Source: Brachyspira murdochii (lineage in GTDB: Bacteria > Spirochaetota > JAAYUW01). From it: DNA of 64,000 bases. The stretch lies in the NCBI GenBank assembly GCA_020722965.1, contig DYJT01000008.1:28474-92473 (forward strand), in the 5' to 3' direction. Made by a program: the position numbers and the translations under genes. Below, in pieces: positions 6,545 through 62,705 of this stretch. The notes beneath the pieces are model-generated. The model saw nothing but the letters and a program-made list of their open reading frames with translations, did not search any database and was not told where the DNA came from. Every line of letters begins with the position of its first letter. Position 1 is the stretch's first letter.

Positions 6545-6852
6545 AGTATCTGCCCGTATTCTTTATCTTTTTCTAAAATCTGCAGACCTATATCGTAGAA
6601 ATTTTCGTTTAAATCTTTAGATATTCTCTTGACAATACCTGTAAATCTCAGGTTATCCCCTTCATTTAATTCTTTTGGTAATTTTAATTTTAATTTTAAT
6701 TGTTTACCCTCAGGTATCTCTGTTTCAGACATCATCAATATACCACCCTCGGAAATATCTAAAAGATAGCCAATTAGAACATCATTTTCATCGAAAATTC
6801 TTAGATAAAATATAAGATGTCTTCTTGTGTATTTTCTTCTGTCCACAATCAA
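6508..6852 (-). CDS. Stand-alone PilZ-domain (c-di-GMP receptor) protein
   Basis: 114 aa. Begins with a RRKYTRRH motif followed by DISEGGILM, the two halves of the PilZ c-di-GMP binding signature. Its 3' end overlaps the 3' end of hisS convergently by 37 nt. Confidence 0.65.
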   Translation of the reverse strand: MIVDRRKYTRRHLIFYLRIFDENDVLIGYLLDISEGGILMMSETEIPEGKQLKLKLKLPKELNEGDNLRFTGIVKRISKDLNENFYDIGLQILEKDKEYGQILQKLIEFCGFFR

Positions 6853-13364: not shown

Positions 13365-13373
13365 GAAAGATAA

Positions 13374-17237: not shown

Positions 17238-18284
17238 ATGGATGACATAGAAAAGCTTAACCAAAAGTTAAGTGATTATAAATCTTTAATAGAAATCGGT
17301 CTTATAATATCTTCAGAGGGAGATATTAATTCAATATCTAAAGAAATCTGTTATGGTCTTATGGCTAAATATCAAATAGAATATGTTATTATTCTTCTTT
17401 TTCCCGATGAAGTACAAAAAGAGATGAAACTTTTTTCTTTTCATAATTTCCAGGAAAATCAAGATTCTTTGAGTATCAGTGATTTTAACCCTATTAGGAC
17501 TTTTTTTCTTTCTCATCCCAATCAGGTCGATTTTTCAACTTTTTCATTTTTGATCTCTGTTGATATTGTTACTCAATTTTTAAAATATAAACCAGAAATC
17601 CTTTTCCCTATAAAAACGACTGAAAATGTATTGGGTTTTTTGATGCTTTCAGAAAATCAAAATGGACAATACACCCAGGATGATATAGAGTATATATCAA
17701 ATGTAACTTCATTCGCTTCTGTAGCCATTCAAAATAAAAAAAATTACTTAAAGGCTATAACAGATTTGAAAACCGGTCTTTATATTTATACCTATTTTAT
17801 CCAGAGAATGAGCGAAGAGATAGAAATATTTAAAAGATATAATGATGTTTTTTCTGCTTTAATGCTTGATATAGATTATTTTAAGGAAATTAATGATACT
17901 TATGGACATTTAATTGGTGATCTAGCCCTAAATGAGCTTTCAAAGATTATTAAAAATAACATAAGGTTAAATATAGATATTCCAGCGAGATTTGGAGGTG
18001 ATGAATTTGCCGTTCTTTTCCCAAGAACATCTAATTTTGTTGCATTTCAAATAGCAGAAAGGATCAGAAAAAAGGTTAATCAATCTATCTTTTATTTCGA
18101 AGGGAAAGAGGTGAAATTCACCGTTTCTATAGGTGTTTCAACTATAGTTACTGGTATAAACAGTCCAGAAAATTTTATAAAGCTTTGCGATAAGGCTTTA
18201 TATTATTCCAAAAAAGCCGGGAAAAACAGAGTAACTTCATTTTATAATAATAAGTTTGGCGCTTATAAAATAGATAATGACTAA
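17238..18284 (+). CDS. GGDEF diguanylate cyclase with an N-terminal GAF-like sensor
   Basis: Intact active-site motif RFGGDEF, together with the LDIDYFKEINDTYGH block. Confidence 0.85.
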   Translation: MDDIEKLNQKLSDYKSLIEIGLIISSEGDINSISKEICYGLMAKYQIEYVIILLFPDEVQKEMKLFSFHNFQENQDSLSISDFNPIRTFFLSHPNQVDFSTFSFLISVDIVTQFLKYKPEILFPIKTTENVLGFLMLSENQNGQYTQDDIEYISNVTSFASVAIQNKKNYLKAITDLKTGLYIYTYFIQRMSEEIEIFKRYNDVFSALMLDIDYFKEINDTYGHLIGDLALNELSKIIKNNIRLNIDIPARFGGDEFAVLFPRTSNFVAFQIAERIRKKVNQSIFYFEGKEVKFTVSIGVSTIVTGINSPENFIKLCDKALYYSKKAGKNRVTSFYNNKFGAYKIDND

Positions 18285-24633: not shown

Positions 24634-24706
24634 GCCGAGATAGCTCAGTCGGTAGAGCAAAGGACTGAAAATCCTTGTGTCGGCGGTTCGATTCCACCTC
24701 TCGGCA
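24634..24706 (+). tRNA. tRNA-Phe (GAA)
   Basis: GCCGAGATAGCTCAGTCGGTAGAGCAAAGGACTGAAAATCCTTGTGTCGGCGGTTCGATTCCACCTCTCGGCA. Perfect 7-bp acceptor stem, D-arm GCTC/GAGC, anticodon loop CTGAAAA, T-loop TTCGATT. CCA is not encoded. Confidence 0.85.
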
Positions 24707-24831: not shown

Positions 24832-25683
24832 ATGGATAAAAATTTTGTCGATCCCGGATTTCAAACACTAACTAAAGCGATACAAATATATTTGAAATTT
24901 GCCTATGAAAATTCTTCCATGCCAGATAATATAAAAAGTAAAGTTGATTCTATATTAAGCTGTAGCTCTTCCCAGGAAGCCTTAAGTTTTTTTAAAAACG
25001 AAATTTTTAATGGATCACAATCATTAAAACTTCAGCTTGGCTCAGCAAAATATCCATTTTTAAAATTAGTATATGAAAAAGCAGCATTTGAAAATTCTTA
25101 TGGTTTTTACATAGATAGACATTCAGAATATATTGCTGTCGATTCAAGCTCCCCAGACTTCCAGAAAGAACTCGAAATAAAAGAATATACCTCTTTTTTG
25201 AAATTCAAAATTGAATCAGAATTTGAAAAAGAAGGTATCCCTACTTACAGAAAACTGGTAAAAGAATATGTAATAAAGAGTAAGAATAATATCAACTCAT
25301 CAAATATCAAAAGAAAAGGTAAATTTATTCTACTTGTCGAAGATGATCCCGATATCAATGAAATGCATAAACTAGAACTTTATATTTTAGGATATGATGT
25401 CGAATCTGTTTTTAATGGATATGATGCTTTGAAGATGGTCGAAAATAAATATTTTGATCTTATGCTTTTAGATCTTATGATGAGTGGTATTTCAGGACAA
25501 GAAGTCATTAATAGAGCTGGTAAAGAGATAGATATTATTGTTTTGAGTGCCTTATCGGACAAATTTACCAAAGATACCTGTTTAAATCTTGGTGCAAAGG
25601 GATTTTTAACAAAACCAATTCATAAAAATGATCTGGATAAATATCTAACAGAGTTTTTTACTAGAAAAGATGAAAATTTTTAA
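24832..25683 (+). CDS. Response regulator with a C-terminal receiver domain and an N-terminal domain of unknown function
   Basis: The REC domain occupies the C-terminal ~120 aa (LLVEDDPDINE...DLMLLDLMMSG...LSALSD...GAKGFLTKP). The N-terminal ~160 aa is unassigned. No cognate kinase is adjacent. Confidence 0.7.
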   Translation: MDKNFVDPGFQTLTKAIQIYLKFAYENSSMPDNIKSKVDSILSCSSSQEALSFFKNEIFNGSQSLKLQLGSAKYPFLKLVYEKAAFENSYGFYIDRHSEYIAVDSSSPDFQKELEIKEYTSFLKFKIESEFEKEGIPTYRKLVKEYVIKSKNNINSSNIKRKGKFILLVEDDPDINEMHKLELYILGYDVESVFNGYDALKMVENKYFDLMLLDLMMSGISGQEVINRAGKEIDIIVLSALSDKFTKDTCLNLGAKGFLTKPIHKNDLDKYLTEFFTRKDENF

Positions 25684-45056: not shown

Positions 45057-46943
45057 AATTTAAGCCAAATTAAATTAGTCTTTAAAAAAAAATTGTCAAA
45101 ATTATTATATATTATTAAAAATCAAGAGGTTATTATTCTTCAATATTAATATTACCATATTTGTATTTGTAGAAAGTATTAGTACTAAAAAAAATTTTGG
45201 TAACAAGCAAGAAATTGTGATTGGGGAAAGATTTGATTTTTTAAAGCTATCATTACAAACTGAAAGAAGGAGTTTCAAAAATACAAAAATATCATTAGTT
45301 ATTTTTCGGAATACATCGTAAATTAATTTAAATTTTGTACCTTACAAGATAACTCAATTTAATTCAAAAGAAATTATATTAAGTAGAACTTCATCATATA
45401 AACTTTTTTAAATATTTTTTTCTCTTGATGTTTATATTGATGATTAAAGAAAGATTAAAGAAGAAAAAAGGATATTAAATAACAAGAAAATATAGAAAAG
45501 AGAAAATAGACTAGAACTTCGAGTCAGGAGAAATTAACTTAATTCAAACTTAAGAACTAAAATTCATTATTTAATATTAAGCTGCGTATCAATCCCATTG
45601 AAAGAGATAAAACTAAAAAAAGAGATGATGAGTAAAACCAGAAAAAAAGTCTTTTTCTTCATTTTAATTCCTTTAATTGCAAATCGGAAAATAATTTGTC
45701 ATAAAATAAGCATGAATATCCATAATAAGATAAGGATAATTCATGCCTTTATTTCTTTTATTATAATTAAGGTTGATCCGGTAATAACTCTTGATTTACA
45801 TATACTATGTAATATGTTCCTCAAAGTTGGAAAAATAGTAAAAGAAATAAAGTTAGATGCTACTTTATTAGATTTTTTATTAATAGAAAATCTATTATTG
45901 AATATTAAATTAATATTTTTATAATTTTTATTTTTATTAAAAGGTAAAGACTTATTTTTAATTAAAAAGAATCGAGAATTCAGGCGATAAGAGATAAGAG
46001 ATAAGATTTTATTTGTCTTCAATCTGTTTATTTAAAAAATTTATTTAATTTATGTAAAGTATTTTTTAATTTTATTGAAAAATTTTTTAATTTTTTATTC
46101 TTTTATTAATTACCCATAAAAATGTCTACCACAAAAATTTTTGCATATCTATAATTCTAAAATTATTTAAAATTAAAAAATAGAATTAATCATCTTAAAA
46201 TAATTTTTTGGTAAAATCTTCCCACTAGAAGTTATCTTATTAAATTAGTTAATACTTATAAAAATAATTCCAATAAAAATTCACTAGATAACTTAAAAAA
46301 TTACATCCAGCAGAAATATATAGAGCAAAACGATCAGCAATACCCTCTATGCGGGTAATTCCTATCCAAATAAAAAGGATTATATTATAAACAATAAAAT
46401 GCGAATAATAGTTGTGTAACAATTAAATGTCGTTCTTGTAAATAGCACCATAAAACTGATTAAGACTTAAAGCAAATCAAAAAATGATGGCAAGACGACA
46501 ATATTACCTATATAAAATAGATAAAAATCTGGGACAATTTACTACAAAAGAGAGAAAGGGCAAATAAAATATTTACTTTACTTATGCATATTTGATAGAT
46601 GGATTATTAAAAAATAGGCTAAATAATAGATTATTAAATAATTGATTATTAAATATAAGATAATCCAAGATTGCGTAAAAAATATGACTATAATGAACCA
46701 CGTACAGTTTTACCATGAATAAAAATTTGTTCGCAATTGATTTAATAGAACATTAATAAGATAGCTGTATGAATAACAAATAGCAAAAGACTAAGGCATT
46801 TTTCAACTGAAATAGAAAAAACTTAAAAATAATCCTAGATTATGTTATTTCTTGTAATCTTAAAATCTCTTTTTACTTATTAATTATTAAAAATAGTATA
46901 AAAAAGAATCTGATTAAACTTTTAAAAAAAGGGATCTTTTAAA

Positions 46944-51028: not shown

Positions 51029-52900
51029 TTAAAAATAAAATGAAAAATCTATATTGATTACAAGATTACTTATAGGGTAATATAAAAGATCATAATATGT
51101 AGCAGATAATAGATTCTCGATTGAGATCGTTATATTTTGTTTTTCTGAGATGTAATATGTGAAGTTTAAATTCAATAAAAAATATGGGGAAAACCAGTTG
51201 TAGTTCTCTAAAGTTATATACCTTATACCACGATAGATTAATTCTAATTTAAGTTTAAATTTCTCTACTTCGGCTAGATCAATATTGAAGATTAAGTTCA
51301 ATAATGGAATATATGGGACATATACCTCATTTAAAATAAGTAATCCCTCGGTAATCTTTGATATCGTCAATGAAAAGTAGCCCGAGATATCTATATAGAA
51401 CTCTTCATTTAAAGGTATTGTATAAGAAAGATTTAAATCAATACCCAGGCTATTTCCTTGAGCAAAATTTATAGGCTTAAATCTATTGTCAAACCTTCGT
51501 AGCCATACTATAAAATCATTAAAATAATAATAATAAAATGAAAAATCAAAATTTAATTTAAATAGATTTAATATCAGACCAAATTCCATTCCAATCGATT
51601 TTTCTGGCTTTAAATCAGGATTACCAATCGCAATAATCCCATATGTACTATATAATTCCTGGTAAGTAGGAAGTCTATAACCAGTTGCTCCCTTAATAAA
51701 CAGTTTTAATAAATTATCTTCTTTAAGATCATAGCCTTTTTCTAAATGAAAATATATTGATGGTAAAACTTGATAAACTAAATCTTGTGTATATTTTAAA
51801 TTTAAATCTATCGATGATGAAGCTTCAATATTTAAAAGATTGTCAAAAGATTTATTGAAAATTAATGAAAAAGAAAATAATGATTGATATAAATTGTTAA
51901 ACATAAGTGTATCATCGTTAATAGATTCAATCCTAAGACTTAAACTTGAGTTTAATAAGGCATTTTTGCTTTTAAAAATCATAAATGGAAAATGTAAAAA
52001 GCCGAATAATAATTTCCTTTCTTCATCTATCAAATAAGTATAATCATGGCAGGAAAATTCTTCATAAAAATATTGAAAGGAAAACAATAGATCTTCAAAT
52101 TTTAAAAAGGAAAATAAAGATAAAGAGTCTTTGTATGTCTTATAATAAGGGAATTGAATATCGTTTGGAAGATATTTTTTTGAATAATCAACAAAAAAAG
52201 AGAACGCAAGAGACTGATATTCCAAATTAAATTTAGAAAAAATATCATAAAAATCCGAATTACCAAATGAATCATTATAACTATTAGTATTAAATTTTAC
52301 TTGAAGATCAAGGCTTGAAAAAAAATTGTTATTGAAAAATGATAAATGAGCAAACATCCCTATATTGATCAAAGATGATAGATATATTGTCCCAAAATTT
52401 ATTGCGCCAGACTCCTTGTTTTTTGTCCAGATAAGTATGGCACCACCTATTGCATTTGGGCCAAAAAGAGCCGAAACATTCCCTTTGTAAATGGTGATTT
52501 TACTTATAATGCTTAGTGGTAGTCTTAATGCATTAATTTGAGAAAGAGTTATTGGTATACCATCTAGAAATATCGCTATCCTGGAGGTTGTAAAGCCTCT
52601 TAAAACAAGAAAACCAATTTCTGCTTCATCTATACCAGAAGCAACATACATAAATGATTGACTTTGTAAAAACTCAACAAGAGTAGTTTTTTGACTCTCT
52701 TCAAAATCTTGTTCATCAAATGTTATTACAGAACCTTCTGTTTGTTGATCCTCTGCTGTAACATTGATTGTAATATCCTGTGCATAGATAATTTGAGTTA
52801 AAATGATTAAATATAAGATAAAAATAAACAAAATAGATAAAAAATTAAAATCTCTTTCTTGTAAAATATTAAATTTTGACTTTTTTATTTTTATTATCAT
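51029..52900 (-). CDS. TonB-dependent outer-membrane receptor (BtuB-like), last gene of the cobalamin-riboswitch operon
   Basis: Signal peptide. Plug-domain blocks (LRGFTTSRIAIFLDGIPI, GNVSALFGPNAIGGAILIWTK). Beta-barrel region ending in the aromatic C-terminus ...DFSFYF. Confidence 0.8.
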   Translation of the reverse strand: MIIKIKKSKFNILQERDFNFLSILFIFILYLIILTQIIYAQDITINVTAEDQQTEGSVITFDEQDFEESQKTTLVEFLQSQSFMYVASGIDEAEIGFLVLRGFTTSRIAIFLDGIPITLSQINALRLPLSIISKITIYKGNVSALFGPNAIGGAILIWTKNKESGAINFGTIYLSSLINIGMFAHLSFFNNNFFSSLDLQVKFNTNSYNDSFGNSDFYDIFSKFNLEYQSLAFSFFVDYSKKYLPNDIQFPYYKTYKDSLSLFSFLKFEDLLFSFQYFYEEFSCHDYTYLIDEERKLLFGFLHFPFMIFKSKNALLNSSLSLRIESINDDTLMFNNLYQSLFSFSLIFNKSFDNLLNIEASSSIDLNLKYTQDLVYQVLPSIYFHLEKGYDLKEDNLLKLFIKGATGYRLPTYQELYSTYGIIAIGNPDLKPEKSIGMEFGLILNLFKLNFDFSFYYYYFNDFIVWLRRFDNRFKPINFAQGNSLGIDLNLSYTIPLNEEFYIDISGYFSLTISKITEGLLILNEVYVPYIPLLNLIFNIDLAEVEKFKLKLELIYRGIRYITLENYNWFSPYFLLNLNFTYYISEKQNITISIENLLSATYYDLLYYPISNLVINIDFSFYF

Positions 52901-53027
52901 AGGAATAATATACTAGTTTTATAATTTTTATTATTTTTTATCTTTTTATTTTTAAATTTATTTTGCACCCATATTTTTTTTAACTTTTTAAACCCATCCC
53001 CTTTATTTAAATAAATCAGCCAATAAA

Positions 53028-53885
53028 TCAGCCAGATGTCACTGTCACATTTGATTTTATTGAATATATTACTTTTATAATAATCCAGAGGGGGAAATTT
53101 GTCTTCTGATCTTTTGGAAATGTAAATAATAGCAAAGATGCCTGCTTAATCGTATAATTATCCAATAGCTTAAAACCTGAACTTTCAAGTAATATAACAT
53201 CGATAACCTTACCAGTACTATCGATAGCTATATTTAATCTTACAATCCCCTGCATCTTAAGTTTCAAAGCATCTTTTGGATACTTAAATAGATTTTTATA
53301 ATTGATAGAATATGAAAATATATTTGAACCTATTGAAGAATTTATCGAATTAAGATCGGAATTAGTTGTCGAATTACCCTGGGAATTAATATCAGAATTT
53401 ACACCATTTGCAATATTTATATCACTTGAATCAAAATTATTTGTATTGTTTTGTTCATTTTCAATGTCTTGATTAATACTCTGGCTTATATTTGTGTTTA
53501 AAGCTTCTTCTTTTTTTTCTTCTTTTTGCGACAAATTTAATTTACTTATTGAATCCTCTGTTTTTTCGTTTGTTTTTTCATTTATCTTTTTTTCTTTATT
53601 TAATATTTTATTTTCTTTTGTTGCATTTAAATTTTTTATCACTTTCTGTTCGATTTTTTCATTTATAATACCAGTGTTTTGTGATAATATTATATTAATA
53701 GACTGATAATTAATCTTCCTATCATCCTTAAGTAAATTTAAAGATTCATTGTTTTGTTTTATAAATATTGCTATAAGAAAAATTATGATAAGATGAAGGG
53801 AAAAAGACAATATGAAGTAAAATATAAAACCCTTTTTGGCTACTTTTCTATGAAAATTAAATTTAAAATCTTTTCCCCTTCTCAT
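53028..53885 (-). CDS. TonB-family energy transducer
   Basis: N-terminal TM anchor, a low-complexity N/S/K-rich linker and a TonB C-terminal domain (YPKDALKLKMQGIVRLNIAIDSTGKVIDVILLESSG). Confidence 0.65.
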   Translation of the reverse strand: MRRGKDFKFNFHRKVAKKGFIFYFILSFSLHLIIIFLIAIFIKQNNESLNLLKDDRKINYQSINIILSQNTGIINEKIEQKVIKNLNATKENKILNKEKKINEKTNEKTEDSISKLNLSQKEEKKEEALNTNISQSINQDIENEQNNTNNFDSSDINIANGVNSDINSQGNSTTNSDLNSINSSIGSNIFSYSINYKNLFKYPKDALKLKMQGIVRLNIAIDSTGKVIDVILLESSGFKLLDNYTIKQASLLLFTFPKDQKTNFPLWIIIKVIYSIKSNVTVTSG

Positions 53886-53895
53886 AAAAAATCTT

Positions 53896-55062
53896 CTATT
53901 TACTCTTTCTAAAGATTATTGACACTGGATAACCTGAAAATTCATAGAAATTTGTAAATATAATGTTTGAAAATTGACTAACTAAATTAGTAAAAGAATT
54001 AGTAAAAGAAAAAGAAGATAGCGAACCCCATGGAGTATTTACAATTGCGATATATTGACTATTTGCCAAATCACCAACATGTATTAAAGAGAGGTTGCTT
54101 TTGGCCCCAACATTTGAATTTTTATCTACCCCGCTAACAAATGTTATAGCACTAGAATCAACTGGTAATCTATAAATTGACTTATTCGAAATAGTATAAA
54201 GATAACCGTTATAAATGGAAGATTTGGAACCAAAATATTCACCACTAGGTAACTTATCATAACTAATTTTGGTAATATTTAAATTAGATAAATCAATCTT
54301 AATCCTAAGAAAACCAGAAGATTGAGTAAAACCATAGTCTCCTGTAGAAATAAGATCGCAGTAGATTTCCCCAGAATGCTCATGAACATAAACCTGTTGA
54401 AAATTTTTTAAATTATATCCTATAAATGTAGTATCAAGGCTCTGCTCTTTCACCTTTTCTAAAGTATTCATTTTAAGAATATAGATTATACTATCATCAT
54501 AGGAATAATTAGAGAGATTATAGTTGGTGTTAATTGTCATTAAATATTCGGAGTTTAATTTTGCAATCGCCTGGATTCCTATATTTGAAGTGTATAAAGC
54601 AGAGCTTTCTTTAATAGTACCATCATTTAAATTTAGTTTAACAACTTTACCACTTGCATTCCCTGAAATATACATATAATCACCATCGATAAAGGCATTA
54701 TACGGATTTGTTCCTGCAGGAAGTGTATATTTTTGAACAAAAGAAAGATTCCTTGTAAATTTTGAAACGGAATTGTCAAGTGAATTTACAACATAATAAT
54801 ATTCTTCATCTGCTGAACTTAATATCTGCTGTGGGGCATAATTTGTATTCTCTGAAGGACCCACAGGAATTGGTTGATCTTTGAATTTACTTAATGTTAC
54901 ATCATAAGGAACGATAACATTTCCTGTTGAATTCAGTATCAAAATGTAATCATGGTAAGTCGCTAAAATATCTGTTTCAACAAATGTGCAGGAAAAAGCG
55001 ATTAAAAAAAAGATAAAAGATGCGAAAAGAGCCAGTGAAATCTTCAATTTTCGTGAATACAT
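53896..55062 (-). CDS. Hypothetical lipoprotein, first gene downstream of the cobalamin riboswitch (possible surface B12-binding protein)
   Basis: 388 aa. Signal peptide with a lipobox-like ...LIAFSC. S/T/N/Y-rich, with a repetitive beta-strand character. Confidence 0.4.
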   Translation of the reverse strand: MYSRKLKISLALFASFIFFLIAFSCTFVETDILATYHDYILILNSTGNVIVPYDVTLSKFKDQPIPVGPSENTNYAPQQILSSADEEYYYVVNSLDNSVSKFTRNLSFVQKYTLPAGTNPYNAFIDGDYMYISGNASGKVVKLNLNDGTIKESSALYTSNIGIQAIAKLNSEYLMTINTNYNLSNYSYDDSIIYILKMNTLEKVKEQSLDTTFIGYNLKNFQQVYVHEHSGEIYCDLISTGDYGFTQSSGFLRIKIDLSNLNITKISYDKLPSGEYFGSKSSIYNGYLYTISNKSIYRLPVDSSAITFVSGVDKNSNVGAKSNLSLIHVGDLANSQYIAIVNTPWGSLSSFSFTNSFTNLVSQFSNIIFTNFYEFSGYPVSIIFRKSK

Positions 55063-55214
55063 AAATCCTCCAAATAGATTTTTTGGAGGGGAGATGCTTC
55101 GTAATGAAAAGATTCTTTTTATATTACTTAAAAAAGCTTAAATAAATAAAATTTCAAAAAATATAAAAGAATCTTCAAACGAGAAGATAACCCTCCCCTA
55201 GCGGATATCTTCTT

Positions 55215-55362
55215 CAATACAGGAAGGTCTCCTGGCTATGGCAACCTCTTTAGCCTTCCCACCATAAAATGGCAGTGGCAAAATTAAAGAGTTTAAACCA
55301 TTACAGTGCCTGGGTGCGCACAGGATTTTCACCTGTTTCCCTTTTATGCTTTCGCTCCTGTA
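55215..55362 (-). ncRNA. Cobalamin (B12) riboswitch
   Basis: The minus strand reads ...AAAAGGGAAACAGGTGAAAATCCTGTGCGCACCCAGGCACTGTAATGG...TTGCCACTGCCATTTTATGGTGGGAAGGCTAAAGAGGTTGCCATAGCCAGGAGACCTTCCTG. This contains the B12 box GCCACTG and the conserved GGTGAAAATCC, GGGAAGGC and AGCCAGGAGACCT elements. The downstream leader has GGGGAGGG and CTCCCCTCC segments that can alternately sequester the GGAGG RBS of the 53896..55062 gene. Confidence 0.8.
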
Positions 55363-55669
55363 TAATAAGCAAAAAAAATTTAAACTTTATTTAAATTTAA
55401 TCAATAGATTTTCAAAAATAGATATAAATTTATTTATAAAAAGGGTAGTTATTTATTTAATAATATTCTTTTATTTATTCTTGTTTTATACACCACACCA
55501 ATTAAACTTTTTATTTATTTGCTTAATAATGTTTTAATCCGCCGGCAATTCAAAAAGTAATATGAAATTTCTATAGTAATTTACTTAATTAATAAGTTTT
55601 TTTCAACTACCAGGACGCCTAAAAGTATTATAAAATATCTATAGTATTATAAAAAATATCTATAATAGT

Positions 55670-56338
55670 TTATTTTGTTAATAAGGTCTTTTCAACAGGT
55701 AAAAATCCAATTATCTTTAATTCAATACCAAAGTTTCTTATTAAGATAATAACTATCTGATCGCTATCTTCACTATGGACTACATATAACAAATCGCCTT
55801 CCAGATATACCAGTGGTAAAAATGATGAAAGATTGCTGGATTTTTCATATTCAACTTCTGTAATTTTTAATTTATGACCAAAAAATTGCTTTATCTGATC
55901 GATTTCTAAAAGAGCATCTATTGTTTCTTCATTGAATAGGTCTGCTGTCGCCAGATTATAAACAGGGAAAGATAAAGATGACTTTTCTTTATTAGTGAAA
56001 AAATCAGAAATGAATTTCGGTGAACTTTCTTTTGCTTCTTTTATTTTATTTTCAATTTCTTCATCTGTTAGTGGTTCATTTGAAAAAACAACATCTTTTG
56101 GGGCAAAATTTGGGTCTAAATAATGTGCGACAGATTTGAAGGCATCACCCTTTTGCTTATCATTATTATTATAATAATATAGGGCAACTTTATAATATGC
56201 CTGAGCAAGGAGTATCTTTTGGTTCAAAGTCAAATTTTGGAAAGGATTTGATGAAGAGATAAATATCAGCAAAACTAAAATTGATATAAGAATGATTAAG
56301 AATTTTACAGAATTTTTACTTTTTATTTTATTTTTCAT
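55670..56338 (-). CDS. Hypothetical membrane-anchored protein
   Basis: 222 aa with an N-terminal TM/signal segment. No motif recognised. Confidence 0.4.
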   Translation of the reverse strand: MKNKIKSKNSVKFLIILISILVLLIFISSSNPFQNLTLNQKILLAQAYYKVALYYYNNNDKQKGDAFKSVAHYLDPNFAPKDVVFSNEPLTDEEIENKIKEAKESSPKFISDFFTNKEKSSLSFPVYNLATADLFNEETIDALLEIDQIKQFFGHKLKITEVEYEKSSNLSSFLPLVYLEGDLLYVVHSEDSDQIVIILIRNFGIELKIIGFLPVEKTLLTK

Positions 56339-56367
56339 AAAACTAAATACCCCCTATCTTTAAATAC

Positions 56368-57909
56368 TTATTTTTCATCCAATTTCATAGTAATTATAAA
56401 AGAATTCTGATTTTTTTCAAATTCTATGTCATCCTCGCAATAATTCAAAATTTGAATTGGGCAATATGCTAGAAAATCTTCGAGAGTAAATTCTTTAAAA
56501 TTCTTGGTATCTATATTTTCTTTGTAAAATTTTAGTTTTTCAAAATATTCCTCATTTATCATTGGAGATTCGACAATTATTGAAATTGTCAATTTTCTTT
56601 TGTTTTTATCATCTAATCTTATCCGCAATATATATACAGCATGAACCTTACTAGAAAGAGAAAAAAATAGCAGAGAAAATATTAACTGTCCAATTCTCTT
56701 GTAATCATGAACAAAATTAAAATCGTAATCTGAAATATCAACTTCTATTTTAGCATCAAAATATTTTTGTAAAAAGCTTGTAAGTTTTAATAGCATATCA
56801 TATACCTGGTGAAAATCAAAAGGCTCGAAATTGCAATTAAAACTGTTCGCTATTATTTTAGTGTAATCTATGATATCTAATATATTATAAAATAGGAATA
56901 AGGCATTTACCTCAATGTTTTCGATATCATTTAGTAAATCCCTCGATAAAGTATTTCCTGCAAAATTTATAATATACATGGAAAAACCCAGTATAGAATT
57001 TAAAGGAGTCAAAAGTTGATGATATACTTTATTAAAAATTAAATTCCTGGATTGTTCGATTTCCGATATTGTATGAAGTTGTCTTAGTAGTTGCTGATTT
57101 TTTGTCTTTAATTCGTTTTTATTTTGATTAACAATCTCTTCTAGATTTTCTATGTAAGATTTTTGCTCGGTCAAAAAAAAGAATGAATATATGATAAAAC
57201 CAAGAGCCTTTTCAATTTTTGAAAGAATCAACTTTTTTTTATATCCTATATACAATTTTTCTGATTTCATCTCTTTTAAAAATAATGTTATTATTGCTGA
57301 AAATTGGTTTGCAAAAGATATATTAAGTTCGTATGTAATTTTGGATTCCATAGATTTGCTAGATAATGAATAGTCATATTCATAATTATTGTCATTTAAC
57401 ATCAATTTTAAATGAAGATAACCTTGAACAGCATCAAAATAATTTGCTATTTTATTCAAAATATATTGGAAAAAGGTGTCGATCTTTTTAGTCTGGGGTT
57501 CTTCTTTTATTATCTGTTTAAATGCCAATTCATATAGCTCAGTCAACAATAAAGATTGTTCATATTCAATTTTTAAAATATGTTCTATAAGTGCTGAAAA
57601 CAAAAAATTAGCAAGGTTTTCATTTTTAATTTCAACATCTGAATATACGAATATTAAAGAATATTCTTTATTTATTAATTTTGTTGATTTTGTTTTTAGT
57701 TTATTCGATTTTACAAGATCATTTAATTCAAAATTATCAAATTCTTTTTTATCTAATACCGGGAAGGAAAAACAATTAAAATAATACTGCTTTAAATCAT
57801 CAAAGTTTATGAGACATATGAAATTTTTTATTTCTAACGAATGTAAAAAGAGCAATAAACCATCTTGAAAACCAAGCTGGAAATTGTCATTATAGTTTAT
57901 TTGACCCAT
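56368..57909 (-). CDS. Cytoplasmic histidine-kinase-like protein (HisKA/DHp motif present, ATPase domain not recognisable)
   Basis: 513 aa with no TM segments. Phosphoacceptor-like block VYHQLLTPLNSILGFSMYI after a coiled coil. The C-terminal 200 aa lack clear N, G1 and G2 boxes. Confidence 0.5.
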   Translation of the reverse strand: MGQINYNDNFQLGFQDGLLLFLHSLEIKNFICLINFDDLKQYYFNCFSFPVLDKKEFDNFELNDLVKSNKLKTKSTKLINKEYSLIFVYSDVEIKNENLANFLFSALIEHILKIEYEQSLLLTELYELAFKQIIKEEPQTKKIDTFFQYILNKIANYFDAVQGYLHLKLMLNDNNYEYDYSLSSKSMESKITYELNISFANQFSAIITLFLKEMKSEKLYIGYKKKLILSKIEKALGFIIYSFFFLTEQKSYIENLEEIVNQNKNELKTKNQQLLRQLHTISEIEQSRNLIFNKVYHQLLTPLNSILGFSMYIINFAGNTLSRDLLNDIENIEVNALFLFYNILDIIDYTKIIANSFNCNFEPFDFHQVYDMLLKLTSFLQKYFDAKIEVDISDYDFNFVHDYKRIGQLIFSLLFFSLSSKVHAVYILRIRLDDKNKRKLTISIIVESPMINEEYFEKLKFYKENIDTKNFKEFTLEDFLAYCPIQILNYCEDDIEFEKNQNSFIITMKLDEK

Positions 57910-57963: not shown

Positions 57964-59613
57964 TTGAAAATTTTATTAAAAAGCAAATATTTACCAAAAT
58001 TAAAAGGGAAAGAAAATATGAAAATAAACAAGATGCCCCTTAAACTTAATCTTAATAAATCAATTATCGATCAATCAAGGCAATTTGCCAGACAGATTGT
58101 TGATGAAGTACAGAAATTTATAGATTTACGATCAACAGTCTCGGTTGAAAGAGCTATACTTAGATTATTCGGAGTTGAATGGCATAGTGAGGATCAGGAA
58201 CTTCCATATGTTAATATTATTATTGACAAGCTTCATAAAGACAATTTACTTTCTAAAGGTGCAACATATTATCTTGTCAATGGTTTATTAAGAACAAATA
58301 TGCCACTAAAAGAATTTTGTGACAACATAGTAAATGGAAGACTATCATTTAAATCTATAGAACCCTTAGATTATGAAGTTGTCAAGGAAAAAGCATTCGA
58401 GTTGGCAAATAAATCGGCCGAAAATATACTTCGAAATGTCGAAAAAAGAGAACAATTAATTTCTGAATATGGTGAAGGTGAACCACCTTATCTATATCTT
58501 ATAGTTGCAACAGGGAATATATACGAAGATGTTATACAGGCACAAAATGCAGCTAGAAGTGGCGCTGATATTATAGCAGTAATAAGATCAACGGCACAAT
58601 CATTGTTGGATTATGTTCCTTATGGCGCTACAACAGAGGGATTTGGGGGCACCTATGCTACTCAAGAAAACTTCAGGATAATGCGTAAGGCTCTAGATGA
58701 AGTTTCAAAAGAAATAGGGAAATATATAAGATTGGTTAACTATTGTTCTGGTCTTTGCATGCCGGAAATAGCTGCTTTAGGAGCAATCGAAAGACTGGAT
58801 GTAATGTTAAATGATTCTATGTATGGTATTTTGTTTAGAGATATAAACATGCAAAGGACATTTATCGATCAATACTTTTCCAGGATGATTAATTCATTTG
58901 CAGAGATAGTTATTAATACAGGAGAAGATAACTATTTGACCACAAGTGATGCATTTGAAAAAGCACATACGGTTCTGGCATCTGAGCTCATTAATGAGCA
59001 ATTTGCATTGAAAGCATATATGCCTGAAAGATTAATGGGACTTGGACATGCCTTTGAGATAAATCCCGATATAGAGAATCAATTTTTATATGAACTTGCT
59101 CAAGCTCAGATGATTAAGGAAATTTTTCCGAATTCTCCTTTAAAATATATGCCTCCAACTAAATTTATGACTGGTAATATTTTTAAAGGACATGTACAGG
59201 ATGCACTTTTCAATTCCGTTTCTGTCATGACAGGGCAAACAATTCACCTTCTTGGAATGCTTACCGAGGCGATTCATACTCCATTTATGATGGATAGACA
59301 TTTATCACTTGAAAATGCGAAAATGGTTTTTAAAACCATGAGGAATATGGCAGATGAGATAGAATTTAAAAAAGATGGAATAATAATGAAAAGGGCGGAA
59401 AAAGTATTACAGGACGCACATGATCTATTAAAATCTATAACACAAAAAGGTCTTATGGAGGCAATTTCCGAAGGTAATTTCGCCGATATTAAAAGATCGC
59501 TTGATGGTGGAAAAGGTTTTAATGGGGTATTTTTAAAGGATGAATCATATTTTAATCCTTTTGAAAAGATTTTTATTGAAAAATTGAAAGAAAGAAATAA
59601 ACAATTCTCATAA
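57964..59613 (+). CDS. kamD: Lysine 5,6-aminomutase alpha subunit (PLP-binding TIM-barrel subunit)
   Basis: 549 aa. The length and the gene order with the downstream B12-binding subunit fit KamD. Confidence 0.75.
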   Translation: MKILLKSKYLPKLKGKENMKINKMPLKLNLNKSIIDQSRQFARQIVDEVQKFIDLRSTVSVERAILRLFGVEWHSEDQELPYVNIIIDKLHKDNLLSKGATYYLVNGLLRTNMPLKEFCDNIVNGRLSFKSIEPLDYEVVKEKAFELANKSAENILRNVEKREQLISEYGEGEPPYLYLIVATGNIYEDVIQAQNAARSGADIIAVIRSTAQSLLDYVPYGATTEGFGGTYATQENFRIMRKALDEVSKEIGKYIRLVNYCSGLCMPEIAALGAIERLDVMLNDSMYGILFRDINMQRTFIDQYFSRMINSFAEIVINTGEDNYLTTSDAFEKAHTVLASELINEQFALKAYMPERLMGLGHAFEINPDIENQFLYELAQAQMIKEIFPNSPLKYMPPTKFMTGNIFKGHVQDALFNSVSVMTGQTIHLLGMLTEAIHTPFMMDRHLSLENAKMVFKTMRNMADEIEFKKDGIIMKRAEKVLQDAHDLLKSITQKGLMEAISEGNFADIKRSLDGGKGFNGVFLKDESYFNPFEKIFIEKLKERNKQFS

Positions 59614-59654
59614 AATGCTTAAAAACTCAAAATAATTAACAAAAAGGTGGTTTC

Positions 59655-60419
59655 ATGAAAGCAAAAGAAATAGATTTAAAAAAAGTTAAACCCTATGGAG
59701 ATACTCTTGATGATGGCAAAATACAGTTTTCTTTTACTTTGCCAGTTCCATATGGCGATGAGGCTAAAGAATGTGCAAAAAGATATCTGGAGGGACTTGG
59801 ATTCGAAAATGTTATGATTACCCACATGGATTCAATGGGCAAGGGTTTTTCTTTTTTTGTCGCATATGGTGCTGCAACTAAGACTATAGATTTTACATCA
59901 ATAGTTGTTCCAAAGGCAAACAAAGAAATATGGGATAAACACACTATAATTGAAAAAATAGAAAATGAACTGGGAAGGCAAATTGTCTTAGTTGGCGCAT
60001 GTATTGAATCTGATGCCCACACAGTTGGAATAGATGCTATTTTAAACATGAAGGGTATTGCAGGACACAAAGGATTGGAATCTTACCATGGAGTTCAAGT
60101 TTATAATATGGGTGCACAGGTTCCTTCCGAAGAAGTTGTTGCTTTAGCCAAAAAGGTAAATGCCGATGTTATATTAATTTCTCAAATTGTAACGCAGAAA
60201 GATGTGCATATTGCAAATATGACTAAATTCATTGAGATTCTTGAGGCTGAAAAATTAAGAGATAAAATTATAGCAATTGCAGGGGGTCCTCGGATAACTC
60301 ATGAACTAGCTTTGGAACTTGGATTCGATGCTGGTTTTGGAGTAGGTACATTTCCCGAAGATGTTGCCACATTTATAGTTCAAATGCTTTTGAAAAAGAA
60401 AAATGAAAAAAGAATATAA
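59655..60419 (+). CDS. kamE: Lysine 5,6-aminomutase beta subunit (B12-binding Rossmann subunit)
   Basis: 254 aa with the cobalamin-binding motif DxHxxG (ESDAHTVGID) in a C-terminal Rossmann-like domain. Confidence 0.8.
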   Translation: MKAKEIDLKKVKPYGDTLDDGKIQFSFTLPVPYGDEAKECAKRYLEGLGFENVMITHMDSMGKGFSFFVAYGAATKTIDFTSIVVPKANKEIWDKHTIIEKIENELGRQIVLVGACIESDAHTVGIDAILNMKGIAGHKGLESYHGVQVYNMGAQVPSEEVVALAKKVNADVILISQIVTQKDVHIANMTKFIEILEAEKLRDKIIAIAGGPRITHELALELGFDAGFGVGTFPEDVATFIVQMLLKKKNEKRI

Positions 60420-61455
60420 CCTTTTACCGGGTCCATCTGGCTTAGTTGAAGAATTCGCAAGATATCTTGTTAAAAACCCAATATCTCAGAGAAGTAAAGA
60501 ATTTTTAAATATCTGGTTTAATGTTAAAGAAAATTTAAAAATACTTTTAGATAATCCTTATGGTGAAATAGCAATACTTACCTGTTCAGCCACTGGAGCC
60601 ATGGAAGCATCTATTCTTTCACTATGCGATGAAAAAAGCAAGGTTCTTGTAATTTCAACTGGTAAATTCGGGGATAGATTTTATGAGATTTTAAGTGGAT
60701 ACTCTATAAATGCAAAAAGAATTTCGTTTTTTGAAGAAAAAAAGATAAACTATGATATAATAGATAAAGAGCTTTGTGATAATAGTTATACTCATATCAC
60801 TTATCAGATCTGTGAGACATCTACCGGGATATTTTGTGATCCACAGATCATAGGGAAATTGTCCCAAAAACATAATTGTCTTACCATAGCCGATGGTGTA
60901 TCTGCATTTTTATCTGATTATATCTATCAAAAAGAGTATAATATTGATGTTGTAATTCTTGGTTCTCAAAAAGGATTCAATTCCCCTGCCGGTCTTTCCT
61001 TTATTAGTTTATCTAAGAGGGCTTTAAATATACTTATGCAAAATGATGTTAAATCATATTATTTTAATCTGAAAAAATATCTTGATCAACCACCTTTTAC
61101 ACCTGCCATTAATACCATATTTTATATAGATAAAATTATAGATAAAGTTTTAAAAATTGGCTATAAAAACCTAATCGAAAGAAATGCTCAGATTGCCTAT
61201 AATTTTAGAGATCGTTGTTTTAAATATGATTTATCTCTTTTTTCAAGGGACCCATCCAATGGGGTTTCGGTAATAGAATTTTTTGATTCGGAAAAGTTTA
61301 TTGAATTTTGTGAGAGAAAATTTAATTTATATATTGGACATGGTCAGGGTTCACTAAAAGGAAAGGTTTTTAGAGTAGGTCATTTAGGTTTGACAGAATT
61401 AAAAAATTATAATATTCTTTTTTTAGCATTAAAAGAATTTTTCAACATCAAATAA
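60403..61455 (+). CDS. Class V (AGXT/serine-pyruvate-like) PLP-dependent aminotransferase
   Basis: N-terminal LLPGPSG. PLP-Lys block (GSQKGFNSPAGLS). C-terminal FRVGHLG. Overlaps the kamE stop by 17 nt. Confidence 0.7.
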   Translation: MKKEYNLLPGPSGLVEEFARYLVKNPISQRSKEFLNIWFNVKENLKILLDNPYGEIAILTCSATGAMEASILSLCDEKSKVLVISTGKFGDRFYEILSGYSINAKRISFFEEKKINYDIIDKELCDNSYTHITYQICETSTGIFCDPQIIGKLSQKHNCLTIADGVSAFLSDYIYQKEYNIDVVILGSQKGFNSPAGLSFISLSKRALNILMQNDVKSYYFNLKKYLDQPPFTPAINTIFYIDKIIDKVLKIGYKNLIERNAQIAYNFRDRCFKYDLSLFSRDPSNGVSVIEFFDSEKFIEFCERKFNLYIGHGQGSLKGKVFRVGHLGLTELKNYNILFLALKEFFNIK

Positions 61456-61469
61456 GATGGGGAGCAATT

Positions 61470-62705
61470 TTGAGTAGCCCAATAGGTGGAAATGAATTAA
61501 ATATGATTTTGCTTTCAGCAATAAATGTAATTAAGCAAATTAGTAATGTTGAGCTTACAAAAAAGCATATATTTAGTTCACATGAATCTTTAACTATCAA
61601 CGCTGATCTACTTTTAATTAAATTATCGGGAGATATTACAGGAGATATCCTTATCAAATTTGATAATAACCTAAAAAAAATAGTATTAGAAAAATTTTTG
61701 AACAATTACTCCGAAATTAAGGATTCCAAAAATACAGAATTAGAAAATTCTGCGTTTAATGAGATTGGAAATCTTATTTCAGCAAAAATGACAAATTTTC
61801 TTTCGGTAGAAAACAAAAAAGTTGATATTTCATCTGTGTCCTTTATCCCTTCAAAAGAAGAGATATTTTATGAATCTATTTTCGCTATTAATATGACAAG
61901 CGATTTTGGTGACTTATCAATTTATCTTTGTTTAAATGAAATAAAATATGAAAGATCTATCTCTTTCATTTTCTATGGATTTTCCGAAGACTCTATGGAA
62001 GAGATTATAAATGATTTCATTCCAAAAGGCTTTGAAGTATATTATGCTCAAAATAGTACCGAATTTTTAAATCAGATCAAATCAAAAAAATTCGATATAG
62101 CAGTTATAGATTTTTATGTAGTTTACCAGGATTTCAATATATTTTTAAAATCATATTTTTCATCCCTGGATTATAAGATAAATCTTATCTTTGGAGTTAC
62201 TAAATTAGATACAATAAAATTCCAGGGTATATCTGCAAATAGTGATAAATACCAGATTATTGGTTTATTTTTAAAAACTTTTTCAATCAAAGAAATAGTT
62301 AAATATATCTATTCAATACTTCAAAAGATAGGAATAAGAGCTAACGATAGAAGAAAACATGTTAGAGTTATACTTTCTGATAATACCAGATATTTTGTTA
62401 CTGTTGATGAAAAAAATTATAAATTTACAGCAAAACTTTTAGATATTTCAATGGGTGGTTTTAAAGCTCAAATTGATATTACCAAAGAAAAAGATAAAAA
62501 CGAAAATAAAGTAATTAAAAAAATACCCGAAATAAGCAGCTTGTTAAATAATGTAGATATGTTTTTAAAATACAATAGGCTAAAAGTTAGCTGCAAAGTT
62601 GTTTATAGCAATGATAAATGTTTTTCAGTATCTTTCATTAATTTAACAGAACAGGACAAGAATACCTTAGCAAATGTGATATTTAAAATTTTATGCAACA
62701 AATAA
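61470..62705 (+). CDS. CheC/CheX-like domain fused to a C-terminal PilZ domain
   Basis: The N-terminal ~130 aa look like a CheC/CheX phosphatase fold (alternating hydrophobic pattern, ...NEIGNLISAKMTNFLS...). The C-terminus has PilZ motifs (RRKHVRV ... DISMGGFKAQI). Confidence 0.5.
   Translation: MSSPIGGNELNMILLSAINVIKQISNVELTKKHIFSSHESLTINADLLLIKLSGDITGDILIKFDNNLKKIVLEKFLNNYSEIKDSKNTELENSAFNEIGNLISAKMTNFLSVENKKVDISSVSFIPSKEEIFYESIFAINMTSDFGDLSIYLCLNEIKYERSISFIFYGFSEDSMEEIINDFIPKGFEVYYAQNSTEFLNQIKSKKFDIAVIDFYVVYQDFNIFLKSYFSSLDYKINLIFGVTKLDTIKFQGISANSDKYQIIGLFLKTFSIKEIVKYIYSILQKIGIRANDRRKHVRVILSDNTRYFVTVDEKNYKFTAKLLDISMGGFKAQIDITKEKDKNENKVIKKIPEISSLLNNVDMFLKYNRLKVSCKVVYSNDKCFSVSFINLTEQDKNTLANVIFKILCNK

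Follow-up and report, generated by a model that had tools for sequence, protein, structure and literature searches.

A single protein that joins a CheX-type domain, a receiver fold and a PilZ domain in one chain of 411 residues is encoded in the spirochaete DNA considered here, as judged from structure models and sequence comparison. With a probability of roughly one half, this fusion is a single-polypeptide c-di-GMP effector for chemotaxis, acting as a c-di-GMP-responsive CheY-P phosphatase, and its composition suggests that c-di-GMP may directly tune swimming in this spirochaete lineage. Few entry points of c-di-GMP into chemotaxis are known: a receptor (Tlp1), a methyltransferase (MapZ-CheR1), the motor (YcgR) and the CheY-like protein Cle. 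To our knowledge, control of a CheY-P phosphatase was first shown in 2026, for two separate proteins of V. cholerae and independently of c-di-GMP, and control of CheX or CheY3 by a spirochaete PilZ protein (B. burgdorferi PlzA) has reportedly been a hypothesis since 2011. That CheX and a PilZ domain with both motifs intact are naturally joined in a spirochaete lineage is "Rosetta-stone" support for a direct functional link between PilZ and CheX.

The fusion gene and its product

The gene occupies positions 61470..62705 (+) of the window, the whole stretch of 64,000 nucleotides that was analyzed. It is a complete ORF of 411 aa with a TTG start and a stop codon at 62703-62705, and a Shine-Dalgarno-like GGGGAG can be read from the sequence at 61459..61464 (+), 6 nt 5' of the TTG. 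The start codon is supported by residues I5 and N11, which lie upstream of the first internal ATG (M12) and are invariant across 12 homologues. Eleven other clusters carry the fusion protein at 50-67% identity, so the gene is no chance ORF and was rightly taken as genuine in an earlier sequence-only reading; an identical protein (P0001) is recorded in GCA_973316735.1. In what follows, the close family is the Exilispira clade, to which the window protein belongs, and the wider family is a 20-sequence alignment. The full-length AlphaFold2 model has a mean pLDDT of 79.7 and a pTM of 0.60, the latter pointing to uncertain packing of the domains. The sequence-only reading had described a two-domain fusion of CheC/CheX to PilZ; both domain calls were correct, but a third, receiver-like domain (residues 165-287) had been overlooked.

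The CheX-type domain

Residues 1-160 (61470..61949, +) make up the CheX-type domain, recognized by Foldseek, by the family profile and, in the wider family, by Pfam. The top 13 Foldseek matches in the PDB are CheX or CheC-like structures (E 7.5e-10 to 1.5e-7, target TM 0.67-0.80), led by the CheX structures 3hm4, 1xko and 3hzh with a target TM of 0.70-0.80, whereas the values for FliM, FliY and CheC structures are 0.3-0.5. Other PDB fold matches of this domain include the FliM/FliY-type structures 4hyn, 2hp7 and 8wiw, together with 3h2d and 3iic. HMM searches bore out the assignment in part. The family profile matched the solved CheX proteins of B. burgdorferi (3hzh, E=2.9e-5) and T. maritima (1xko, E=4.5e-5), and the NCBIfam CheX model matched residues 10-128 of the window protein (E=5.6e-7, far below the equivalog cut-off), but the Pfam CheX model (PF13690) reached only 18 bits over residues 49-121 (E=0.003), below its gathering cut-off of 27. 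The same Pfam model matches 15 of the 20 wider-family members (best E=3.6e-14), P0021 scoring 53 bits.

The CheC/CheX catalytic motif S94-x3-E98-x2-N101 lies within SAFNEIGN (61749..61772, +) and was identified from its invariance and from alignment with solved CheX proteins. S94, E98 and N101 are invariant across 12 close homologues, and the family profile places the E98/N101 motif opposite ELGN in the CheX protein of T. maritima and EVGN in that of B. burgdorferi. The CheC/CheX-like N-terminus proposed from sequence alone is confirmed by the CheX fold and by this intact motif, and the domain, whose Glu/Asn pair is intact, is predicted to act as a CheY-P phosphatase of the CheX type. Both catalytic residues are retained in 16 of the 20 wider-family members; the Glu and/or the Asn has gone from the other four (P0015, P0024, P0033 and P0066), so the scaffold can persist without catalysis. 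The stand-alone CheX proteins of B. burgdorferi and T. maritima (3hzh, 1xko) have the same fold and a single E-x2-N site, and the former shares a spirochaete source with the fusion, but canonical CheX is a protein of about 150-160 aa without extra domains, and sequence identity is only 16-20%. The 'PP' stretch that follows the catalytic helix of canonical CheX has no conserved counterpart in the Exilispira clade: in the alignment with the T. maritima and B. burgdorferi proteins, the conserved Pro about 22 residues after the catalytic Asn is absent from the window protein, the canonical 'DITPP' aligning to 'DISSV'. The proline at position 127 of the window protein is not shared across its clade, and a PP stretch after the catalytic helix is found in several distant family members.

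The central receiver-fold domain

The overlooked domain (61962..62330, +) has a receiver (CheY-like) fold, detected in a separate AF2 model, by Foldseek and with the wider-family profile, and is joined to the CheX domain by a linker of 6 residues in the full-length AlphaFold2 model. Modeled in isolation, it shows a (beta-alpha)5 topology with a pLDDT of 87.8, and receiver domains account for 48 of its 50 listed Foldseek matches in the PDB (query-normalized TM 0.52-0.70). A close-clade profile of the domain gave no significant match to the PDB or to E. coli CheY, so the wider-family profile was needed to reach receiver domains (best E=8.5e-11, for 2qxy; CheY proteins at about 1e-6). Pfam Response_reg (PF00072) matches three of the 20 family members (best E=2.8e-6). 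This domain is the best conserved of the three.

The acidic Asp-Asp pair of the Mg2+ site at the end of beta-1 is absent. The window protein has G170-F171 at these positions, none of the 20 sequences of the family alignment has two acids there, and acidic residues (E173 and D/E174) come after this loop. The position of the phospho-acceptor Asp is taken by D214 (codon 62109..62111, +), which aligns to the acceptor Asp of the receiver-like designed protein 9xzo_A in an HMM alignment and stands opposite CheY D57 in a weak hhalign match. D214, T244 (at or beside the Thr position) and K269 are invariant within the Exilispira clade; across the 20 wider-family sequences the acceptor position is occupied by Asn in seven and by Cys in one, Asp and Asn together accounting for 19. 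Because the Asp-Asp pair is missing, residues 165-287 are probably a non-phosphorylatable pseudo-receiver, and the domain was filed as such, rather than as a functional REC domain, because of the members with Asn or Cys at the acceptor position. A canonical phosphorylatable receiver was dropped as the default reading, since no family member has the Asp-Asp pair. The pseudo-receiver would most likely act as a non-phosphorylated adaptor or dimerization module, and its conservation raises a testable structural question, that of the relay of PilZ signals.

The PilZ domain

Residues 293-411 (62346..62702, +) form a PilZ domain, identified by Pfam, an AF2 model and Foldseek. The Pfam PilZ model (PF07238) covers residues 293-405 and clears its cut-off of 22.5 bits with a score of 37.2 (E=4e-9), and the structure model contains the foldable barrel expected of the family, with six strands between residues 308 and 390, followed by a C-terminal helix (394-410). 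Foldseek matched this part to the PilZ structures of YcgR (5y6g), PP4397 (3kyf), Alg44 (4rt0) and MrkH, c-di-GMP-bound PilZ structures being among the matches. Both halves of the c-di-GMP-binding signature are present as quoted in the sequence-only reading. The RxxxR motif, RRKHVR (residues 294-299; 62349..62366, +), lies in the linker between the receiver and PilZ domains, and its three arginines (R294, R295 and R299) show no variation within the close family. The [D/N]hSxxG motif, as defined in bioRxiv 10.1101/814665, is DISMGG (62442..62459, +), with D325, I326, S327 and G330 invariant in the close family; the DISMGGF string quoted earlier covers residues 325-331 (nt 62442-62462). In the wider family both motifs are missing together from P0020, P0029, P0032, P0043 and P0071, which is the pattern expected if they form one ligand site. 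Pfam and NCBIfam gave no match to a PilZN (YcgR_N) domain in the window protein; the NCBIfam YcgR model matched only the PilZ part, and weakly (E=0.0066; 16 bits, where the cut-off is 400).

Genomic context

The fusion gene follows three same-strand genes annotated with Pfam: D-lysine 5,6-aminomutase alpha (57964-59613, +), the B12-binding beta subunit of the same enzyme (59655-60419, +) and a class-V aminotransferase (60403-61455, +), which ends 14 nt before the fusion gene start. These genes (57964..61455) and the fusion gene probably form an operon, co-transcription being suggested by their spacing alone. The gene order KamD-KamE-aminotransferase-fusion is common to all Exilispira-like loci, with a 14-nt gap or a 1-nt overlap, and the conserved immediate neighbors are the D-lysine 5,6-aminomutase, the class-V aminotransferase and ComEC. 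No che or flagellar gene adjoins the fusion gene in the window annotation or at the Exilispira-like loci. At the locus of P0013 only the aminotransferase and ComEC remain of the conserved neighbors, at locus L008 the Kam genes are divergent, and more distant family members have unrelated neighbors. On two contigs the P0021 gene is preceded, at a distance of 27 bp, by a GAF-GGDEF cyclase gene, and MCP genes are found within about 2 kb of two other family members; beyond this one GGDEF adjacency and the two nearby MCP genes, no recurrent che or flagellar operon was found near the distant members.

The context annotation covered 30 further ORFs of the window. It contains all four of the signaling genes that the sequence-only reading had listed, namely a GAF-HD-GYP gene (1331-2584), a stand-alone PilZ gene (6508-6852, -), a 7-TM MCP gene (13374-15191) and a GAF-GGDEF gene (17238-18284). 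The compact c-di-GMP/chemotaxis module that these genes had been thought to form with the fusion gene was rejected: the genes are real but dispersed, at 43-60 kb from the fusion gene and on both strands, amid housekeeping genes that include those for SAM synthetase, NadA, U32 peptidase, EngA and PTS enzyme I. A search of the window with Rfam found no c-di-GMP riboswitch. The DNA around the fusion gene is AT-rich, and a promoter/terminator scan was uninformative.

Distribution of the family

In a set of 1.84 billion representatives, the CheX / pseudo-receiver / PilZ architecture accounts for about 20 clusters at 50% identity, and wherever the source of a family member is named, it is a Spirochaetota genome from a metagenome. 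The source organisms are uncultured. A word-index search with the 20-sequence alignment returned only known members among the matches listed, and a search seeded with P0126 returned its own subclade only, with no named Treponema protein; precomputed matches to Pfam PF27476 point to a possible link to T. pallidum TP0454. The small number of clusters and the confinement of the named ones to Spirochaetota agree with the earlier description of the architecture as uncommon. As a class the architecture is not new, PilZ-CheC and PilZ-REC fusions having been catalogued already in 2006. These fusions, listed by Amikam and Galperin (2006) according to bioRxiv 10.1101/814665, likewise join PilZ to chemotaxis or two-component modules; as described in the citing paper they are two-domain proteins with no functional study, and it is by this cited description that they are set apart from the three-domain family. 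Searches for CheX-PilZ, CheC-PilZ and REC-PilZ fusions by name returned nothing from the literature searched. What is described here is the domain order CheX-pseudo-receiver-PilZ and its restriction to Spirochaetota.

Proposed function and alternatives

An input of c-di-GMP into CheY-P dephosphorylation is the most economical reading of this protein, because the CheX catalytic Glu/Asn pair and both PilZ motifs have been kept. The sequence-only reading had come to the same view; the domains and residues on which it rests are observed, and from them we infer c-di-GMP binding, phosphatase activity, the coupling of the two and its direction. Bound c-di-GMP would hold the linker tight against the PilZ barrel, in the manner of other two-domain PilZ proteins, and this clamping would re-orient the pseudo-receiver and the CheX domain. 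The re-orientation could alter the efficiency with which the CheX domain removes phosphate from CheY-P, and the level of c-di-GMP would thereby shift the frequency of spirochaete reversal or flexing. That high c-di-GMP would inhibit the phosphatase is a guess, made by analogy with V. cholerae PlzC-CheX and with the B. burgdorferi pdeB phenotype. The fusion would offer a single-polypeptide system for measuring such coupling in vitro, for which the protein itself, CheY-P and c-di-GMP would suffice.

The purified PilZ protein PlzC of V. cholerae inhibits the CheX phosphatase independently of c-di-GMP (PMC12799141, 2026), so a link between PilZ and CheX need not transmit a nucleotide signal. The fusion might accordingly be a constitutive CheX phosphatase that its PilZ domain and pseudo-receiver only localize or scaffold, at receptor arrays, the motor or the pole, with catalysis outside the control of c-di-GMP. 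PilZ domains are known to contact other proteins through the C-terminal helix, MapZ being an example (bioRxiv 10.1101/814665), and the five members without c-di-GMP motifs, a quarter of the family, keep both the three-domain scaffold and E-x2-N. Both PilZ motifs are nevertheless invariant in the Exilispira clade across 50-67% identity, which speaks for selection on ligand binding in that clade, and a GGDEF gene lies directly upstream of one member (P0021); a constitutive enzyme, with c-di-GMP setting its location or nothing at all, is on balance unlikely. A shade less probable is a non-catalytic, YcgR-like modulator, a c-di-GMP brake or switch whose CheX-like domain binds the flagellar switch or CheY. 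The CheC/CheX fold is common to the FliM middle domain and FliY (4hyn, 2hp7, 8wiw), the PilZ part has its weak match to YcgR, and four family members have lost catalytic residues; set against this are the invariance of S-x3-E-x2-N in the clade of the window protein, the much closer fit to CheX than to FliM, FliY or CheC in target TM, and the lack of a PilZN/YcgR_N domain.

The neighborhood of the gene bears on a further alternative, in which the protein serves outside chemotaxis, as a c-di-GMP-responsive phosphatase or regulator of another response regulator or of the lysine-fermentation operon. The conserved order and tight spacing of the Kam and aminotransferase genes in Exilispira-like genomes and the lack of adjoining che genes would fit such a role, as would the many CheC-like superfamily proteins of unknown role (3h2d and 3iic are among the fold matches). 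The KamDE linkage does not hold, however, in the next clades (P0013, L008), the neighbors of distant members are unrelated, and the characterized substrates of CheX-type enzymes are all CheY (established knowledge; PMC12799141); a role outside chemotaxis is considered improbable. The chance is slighter still that the protein is a self-draining phosphate sink, in which CheA would phosphorylate D214, the CheX domain of the same chain or of a dimer partner would remove the phosphate, and c-di-GMP would set the rate of the drain. D214, T244 and K269, which sit at or beside the places of the receiver Asp, Thr and Lys, do not vary within the Exilispira clade, and the acidic E173 and D/E174 follow the loop; yet G170-F171 replace the metal-binding Asp-Asp pair, which is missing throughout the family, eight of 20 members have Asn or Cys as the acceptor, and the 6-residue linker between CheX and receiver leaves little freedom for docking in cis. 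An idea closer to the c-di-GMP-responsive phosphatase, though also improbable, is that the pseudo-receiver is a built-in pseudo-substrate that would occupy the E98/N101 site instead of CheY-P and hold the enzyme in an auto-inhibited state, with c-di-GMP, bound to the neighboring RxxxR linker and the PilZ barrel, releasing or locking it. The strong conservation of the receiver-like domain, the presence of Asp or the isosteric Asn at the acceptor position in all but one of the 20 members, the loss of the Mg2+ site and the placement of RxxxR right at the receiver-PilZ junction are all compatible with this idea. If true, the protein would be a response-regulator phosphatase that is gated by a second messenger and carries its own intramolecular decoy; we know of no CheY-P phosphatase for which such a logic has been described.

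Relation to known systems

For the predicted c-di-GMP-responsive CheY-P phosphatase, the nearest parallel is the PlzC-CheX pair of V. cholerae, where a PilZ protein controls a CheX-type CheY-P phosphatase, both functionally and biochemically, and so connects the c-di-GMP network with how often the cells change direction. PlzC and CheX are separate proteins, whereas here the two domains are fused in one chain, with a pseudo-receiver between the two parts and strictly conserved c-di-GMP motifs. In B. burgdorferi, CheX or CheY3 has been suggested as a target of modulation by the PilZ protein PlzA, a PlzA-CheX link there being no more than a hypothesis (PMC4013479). The brakes YcgR, MotI and PlzD resemble the fusion in their C-terminal canonical PilZ domain, in the RxxxR motif in the inter-domain linker and in their motility output, which is a prediction for the fusion; their N-terminus is, in contrast, a PilZN domain, a PilZ-like barrel in contact with the motor or stator, and they have neither a phosphatase nor a receiver domain. 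Azospirillum Tlp1 (an MCP-PilZ protein), P. aeruginosa MapZ-CheR1 and the CheY-like Cle of Caulobacter are further cases in which c-di-GMP acts directly on a chemotaxis component; there it enters at a receptor, a methyltransferase and a CheY-like motor binder, respectively, whereas the entry point predicted for the fusion is the CheY-P phosphatase.

Domain architecture of the fusion protein

The fusion gene (61470–62705, + strand) lies in a window with a G+C content of about 27%, assigned to contig CCWSBS010000004.1 of assembly GCA_973316735.1, and encodes a protein of 411 residues. Its TTG start codon, preceded by GGGGAG, is credible because I5 and N11, both upstream of the first internal methionine, are invariant among homologues. 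The motifs quoted in a sequence-only reading of this DNA were exact (RRKHVR, residues 294–299; DISMGGF, residues 325–331), and the CheC/CheX-like and PilZ domains that it recognized are both present, but it overlooked a third domain, with a receiver fold, between them.

The identification of the N-terminal domain as CheX-type is borne out by a profile of close homologues and by an AlphaFold2 model searched with Foldseek. The NCBIfam CheX model matches residues 10–128 (E = 5.6e-7), and the Pfam CheX model gives a sub-threshold match at residues 49–121 (18 bits, for a gathering score of 27). A profile built from the 12 close homologues (the Exilispira clade) matches the solved CheX structures of B. 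burgdorferi (3hzh, E = 2.9e-5) and T. maritima (1xko, E = 4.5e-5), and aligns E98-x2-N101 with their catalytic E-x2-N. The best PDB matches to the model of the full-length protein (mean pLDDT 79.7, pTM 0.60) are CheX structures, with a target TM of 0.70–0.80, CheC, FliY and FliM being far behind (0.3–0.5). The protein has one S-x3-E-x2-N site, like CheX, whereas CheC has two.

The PilZ domain rests on a Pfam match above the gathering score (residues 293–405, E = 4e-9), a modelled barrel with a C-terminal helix, as in canonical PilZ domains, and both c-di-GMP motifs. D325-I-S-M-G-G330 satisfies the refined [D/N]hSxxG motif (bioRxiv 10.1101/814665), and the RxxxR motif sits in the junction between receiver and PilZ. 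After CheX, the next PDB matches to the model are c-di-GMP-bound PilZ domains (YcgR, PP4397, Alg44 and MrkH).

The central domain gives weak response-regulator matches in NCBIfam (residues 174–319) and forms a (beta-alpha)5 unit at residues 165–287 of the full-length model. When this unit was modelled separately (pLDDT 87.8) and compared with the PDB, 48 of the 50 Foldseek matches listed were receiver domains, including CheY, PhoB, Spo0F and PmrA, the other two being chains of a single uncharacterised human Rossmann-fold protein; the TM scores normalised to the query were 0.52–0.70. The sequences of the close clade alone show no significant similarity to receivers in this domain; a profile including distant members matches a T. 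maritima response regulator (2qxy) at E = 8.5e-11 and many CheY structures at about 1e-6. In the alignment from this profile, the receiver acidic pair corresponds to G170-F171, the phospho-acceptor to D214 and the lysine to K269, with T244 at or beside the threonine position. The acidic pair of the metal site is absent from all 20 representatives of the wider family, and the acceptor position is occupied by Asn in seven of them and Cys in one; the domain is therefore best described, from its sequence, as a pseudo-receiver. Neither of the other two domains is as well conserved as this one, whose mean pairwise identity is 74% (63% for CheX, 69% for PilZ), and the 13-residue junction bearing RxxxR reaches 83%.

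Family and taxonomic range

A word-index search recovered only 12 clusters (50–100% identity), one carrying the name Exilispira sp., and a scan in which each GTDB species was represented by one genome recovered six genomes, all Exilispira-like metagenome genomes, some labelled Brachyspira or Spirochaetales. An exhaustive HMM search of 1.84 billion representatives gave 114 matches at E ≤ 1e-3, about 20 of which are proteins of 400–430 residues spanning all three domains; the remainder are mostly receiver-PilZ halves of about 240 residues (some being contig-end fragments), stand-alone CheX proteins of about 150 residues, and fragments. Named sources are Spirochaetota or Spirochaetes bacterium, and named members are annotated “PilZ domain-containing protein” or “chemotaxis protein CheX”.

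Among the 20 representatives, Pfam detects CheX in 15 (best E = 3.6e-14), CheC in 8, PilZ in 12 and Response_reg in 3. Of the 20, 16 retain both the Glu and the Asn of the catalytic site, and five members have lost the two PilZ motifs together, which is what one would expect if these form one ligand site. In the window's own clade, the catalytic residues and both PilZ motifs are kept, and the spirochaete family as a whole is under purifying selection.

One Exilispira-like locus (L002, 9965–11817) carries an intact 412-residue ortholog followed in tandem by a truncated 171-residue ORF, a second paralogue resembling the family member P0015, in which Thr replaces the catalytic Glu. Precomputed Pfam matches place PF27476 (“TP_0454_C”) on two members with degenerate PilZ motifs, P0020 and P0144 (L020, 3551–4762). 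Given these matches, and as T. pallidum TP0454 has been modelled as response-regulator-like (PMC9200625), TP0454 may belong to this family.

Genomic neighbourhood

The four other signalling genes of the sequence-only reading are all found among the annotated ORFs of the window: GAF-HD-GYP (1331–2584), a stand-alone PilZ of 114 residues (6508–6852, − strand; Pfam 48.8 bits, RxxxR and DxSxGG intact), a 7-TM MCP (13374–15191, + strand; about seven predicted transmembrane segments at residues 93–334) and GAF-GGDEF (17238–18284). Housekeeping genes surround them, and the fusion gene is 43–60 kb away; they thus do not form the compact module that had been proposed. The MCP has no recognised sensor domain and an unusually Lys-rich N-terminus.

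Upstream of the fusion gene, on the same strand, are the alpha and beta genes of D-lysine 5,6-aminomutase (Kam genes) and then a class-V aminotransferase gene, separated from the fusion gene by 14 nt; a ComEC gene is convergent with it. All Exilispira-like loci share exactly this gene order, down to 50% identity, and only the aminotransferase and ComEC neighbourhood is left around a 36%-identity member. In GCA_026415295.1 (Spirochaetota), two full-length paralogues are found (L008, 8001–9233 and 12691–13911), one beside the Kam genes and divergent from them, the other in the aminotransferase-ComEC slot. On two independent contigs (L009, 6859–9221; L010, 1852–4214), the gene of the distant member P0021 starts 27 bp after a GAF-GGDEF diguanylate cyclase gene. 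Two distant members have MCP genes within about 2 kb, and the genes of two with degenerate PilZ motifs come immediately after, or overlap, a DUF4015 gene of about 695 codons (L015, 1323–4632; L016, 3918–7239). No recurrent che or flagellar operon was found at the loci of close and distant members. About 4 kb downstream of the ortholog in L001, at 13214–15068, a gene for ComFB, a c-di-NMP receptor family described only recently (PMC12448109), comes immediately after a GAF-HD-GYP gene.

Proposed mechanism and alternatives

The fusion protein combines three folds with intact catalytic and ligand-binding residues and a receiver metal site that has been lost. Binding of c-di-GMP to the PilZ domain would wrap the linker around the ligand, in the manner of other PilZ proteins with several domains, and re-orient the pseudo-receiver, altering the activity or availability of CheX towards CheY-P. 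As to direction, our guess by analogy favours inhibition of CheX at high c-di-GMP, because PlzC inhibits CheX in V. cholerae (PMC12799141); this would also agree with the phenotype of B. burgdorferi pdeB mutants, which flex more; a modulating effect of PlzA on CheX or CheY3 has been proposed for it (PMC4013479). There are four rival readings: the PilZ domain might serve localisation only, or the protein might be a non-catalytic, YcgR-like binder; it might instead act as a self-draining phosphate sink, or have a role outside chemotaxis that is linked to the lysine operon.

bioRxiv 10.1101/814665 cites the original PilZ paper as listing fusions of PilZ to CheC and to REC, so the concept has a precedent; a search of the local literature turned up no study of such a protein. 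What is new is the three-domain order CheX, pseudo-receiver, PilZ, and the fit of the family with the recently demonstrated PlzC-CheX link; the definition of the family and its apparent restriction to Spirochaetota are also new. The protein lends itself well to testing biochemically, within one polypeptide, whether c-di-GMP controls a CheY-P phosphatase, but its properties are all predicted and it comes from uncultured organisms.

Other features of the window

A cobalamin riboswitch (55205–55376, − strand; Rfam RF00174, 101 bits) precedes a minus-strand gene set (51029–55062) encoding a hypothetical protein, a TonB_C protein and a TonB-dependent receptor. Together they are probably a B12-uptake operon, which adjoins the genes for the B12-dependent D-lysine 5,6-aminomutase. 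Three ORFs without a Pfam match (388, 222 and 513 residues; 53896–57909, − strand) recur, in unchanged order, at every Exilispira-like locus. The AT-rich 1.9 kb between divergent genes at 45057–46943 contains no ORF of at least 110 residues, Rfam or tRNA match, or clear repeat. Just past the single tRNA-Phe (24634–24706), a gene at 24832–25683 (+ strand) encodes a 283-residue protein with a canonical receiver at residues 166–271 and a 165-residue N-terminal region without a Pfam match.
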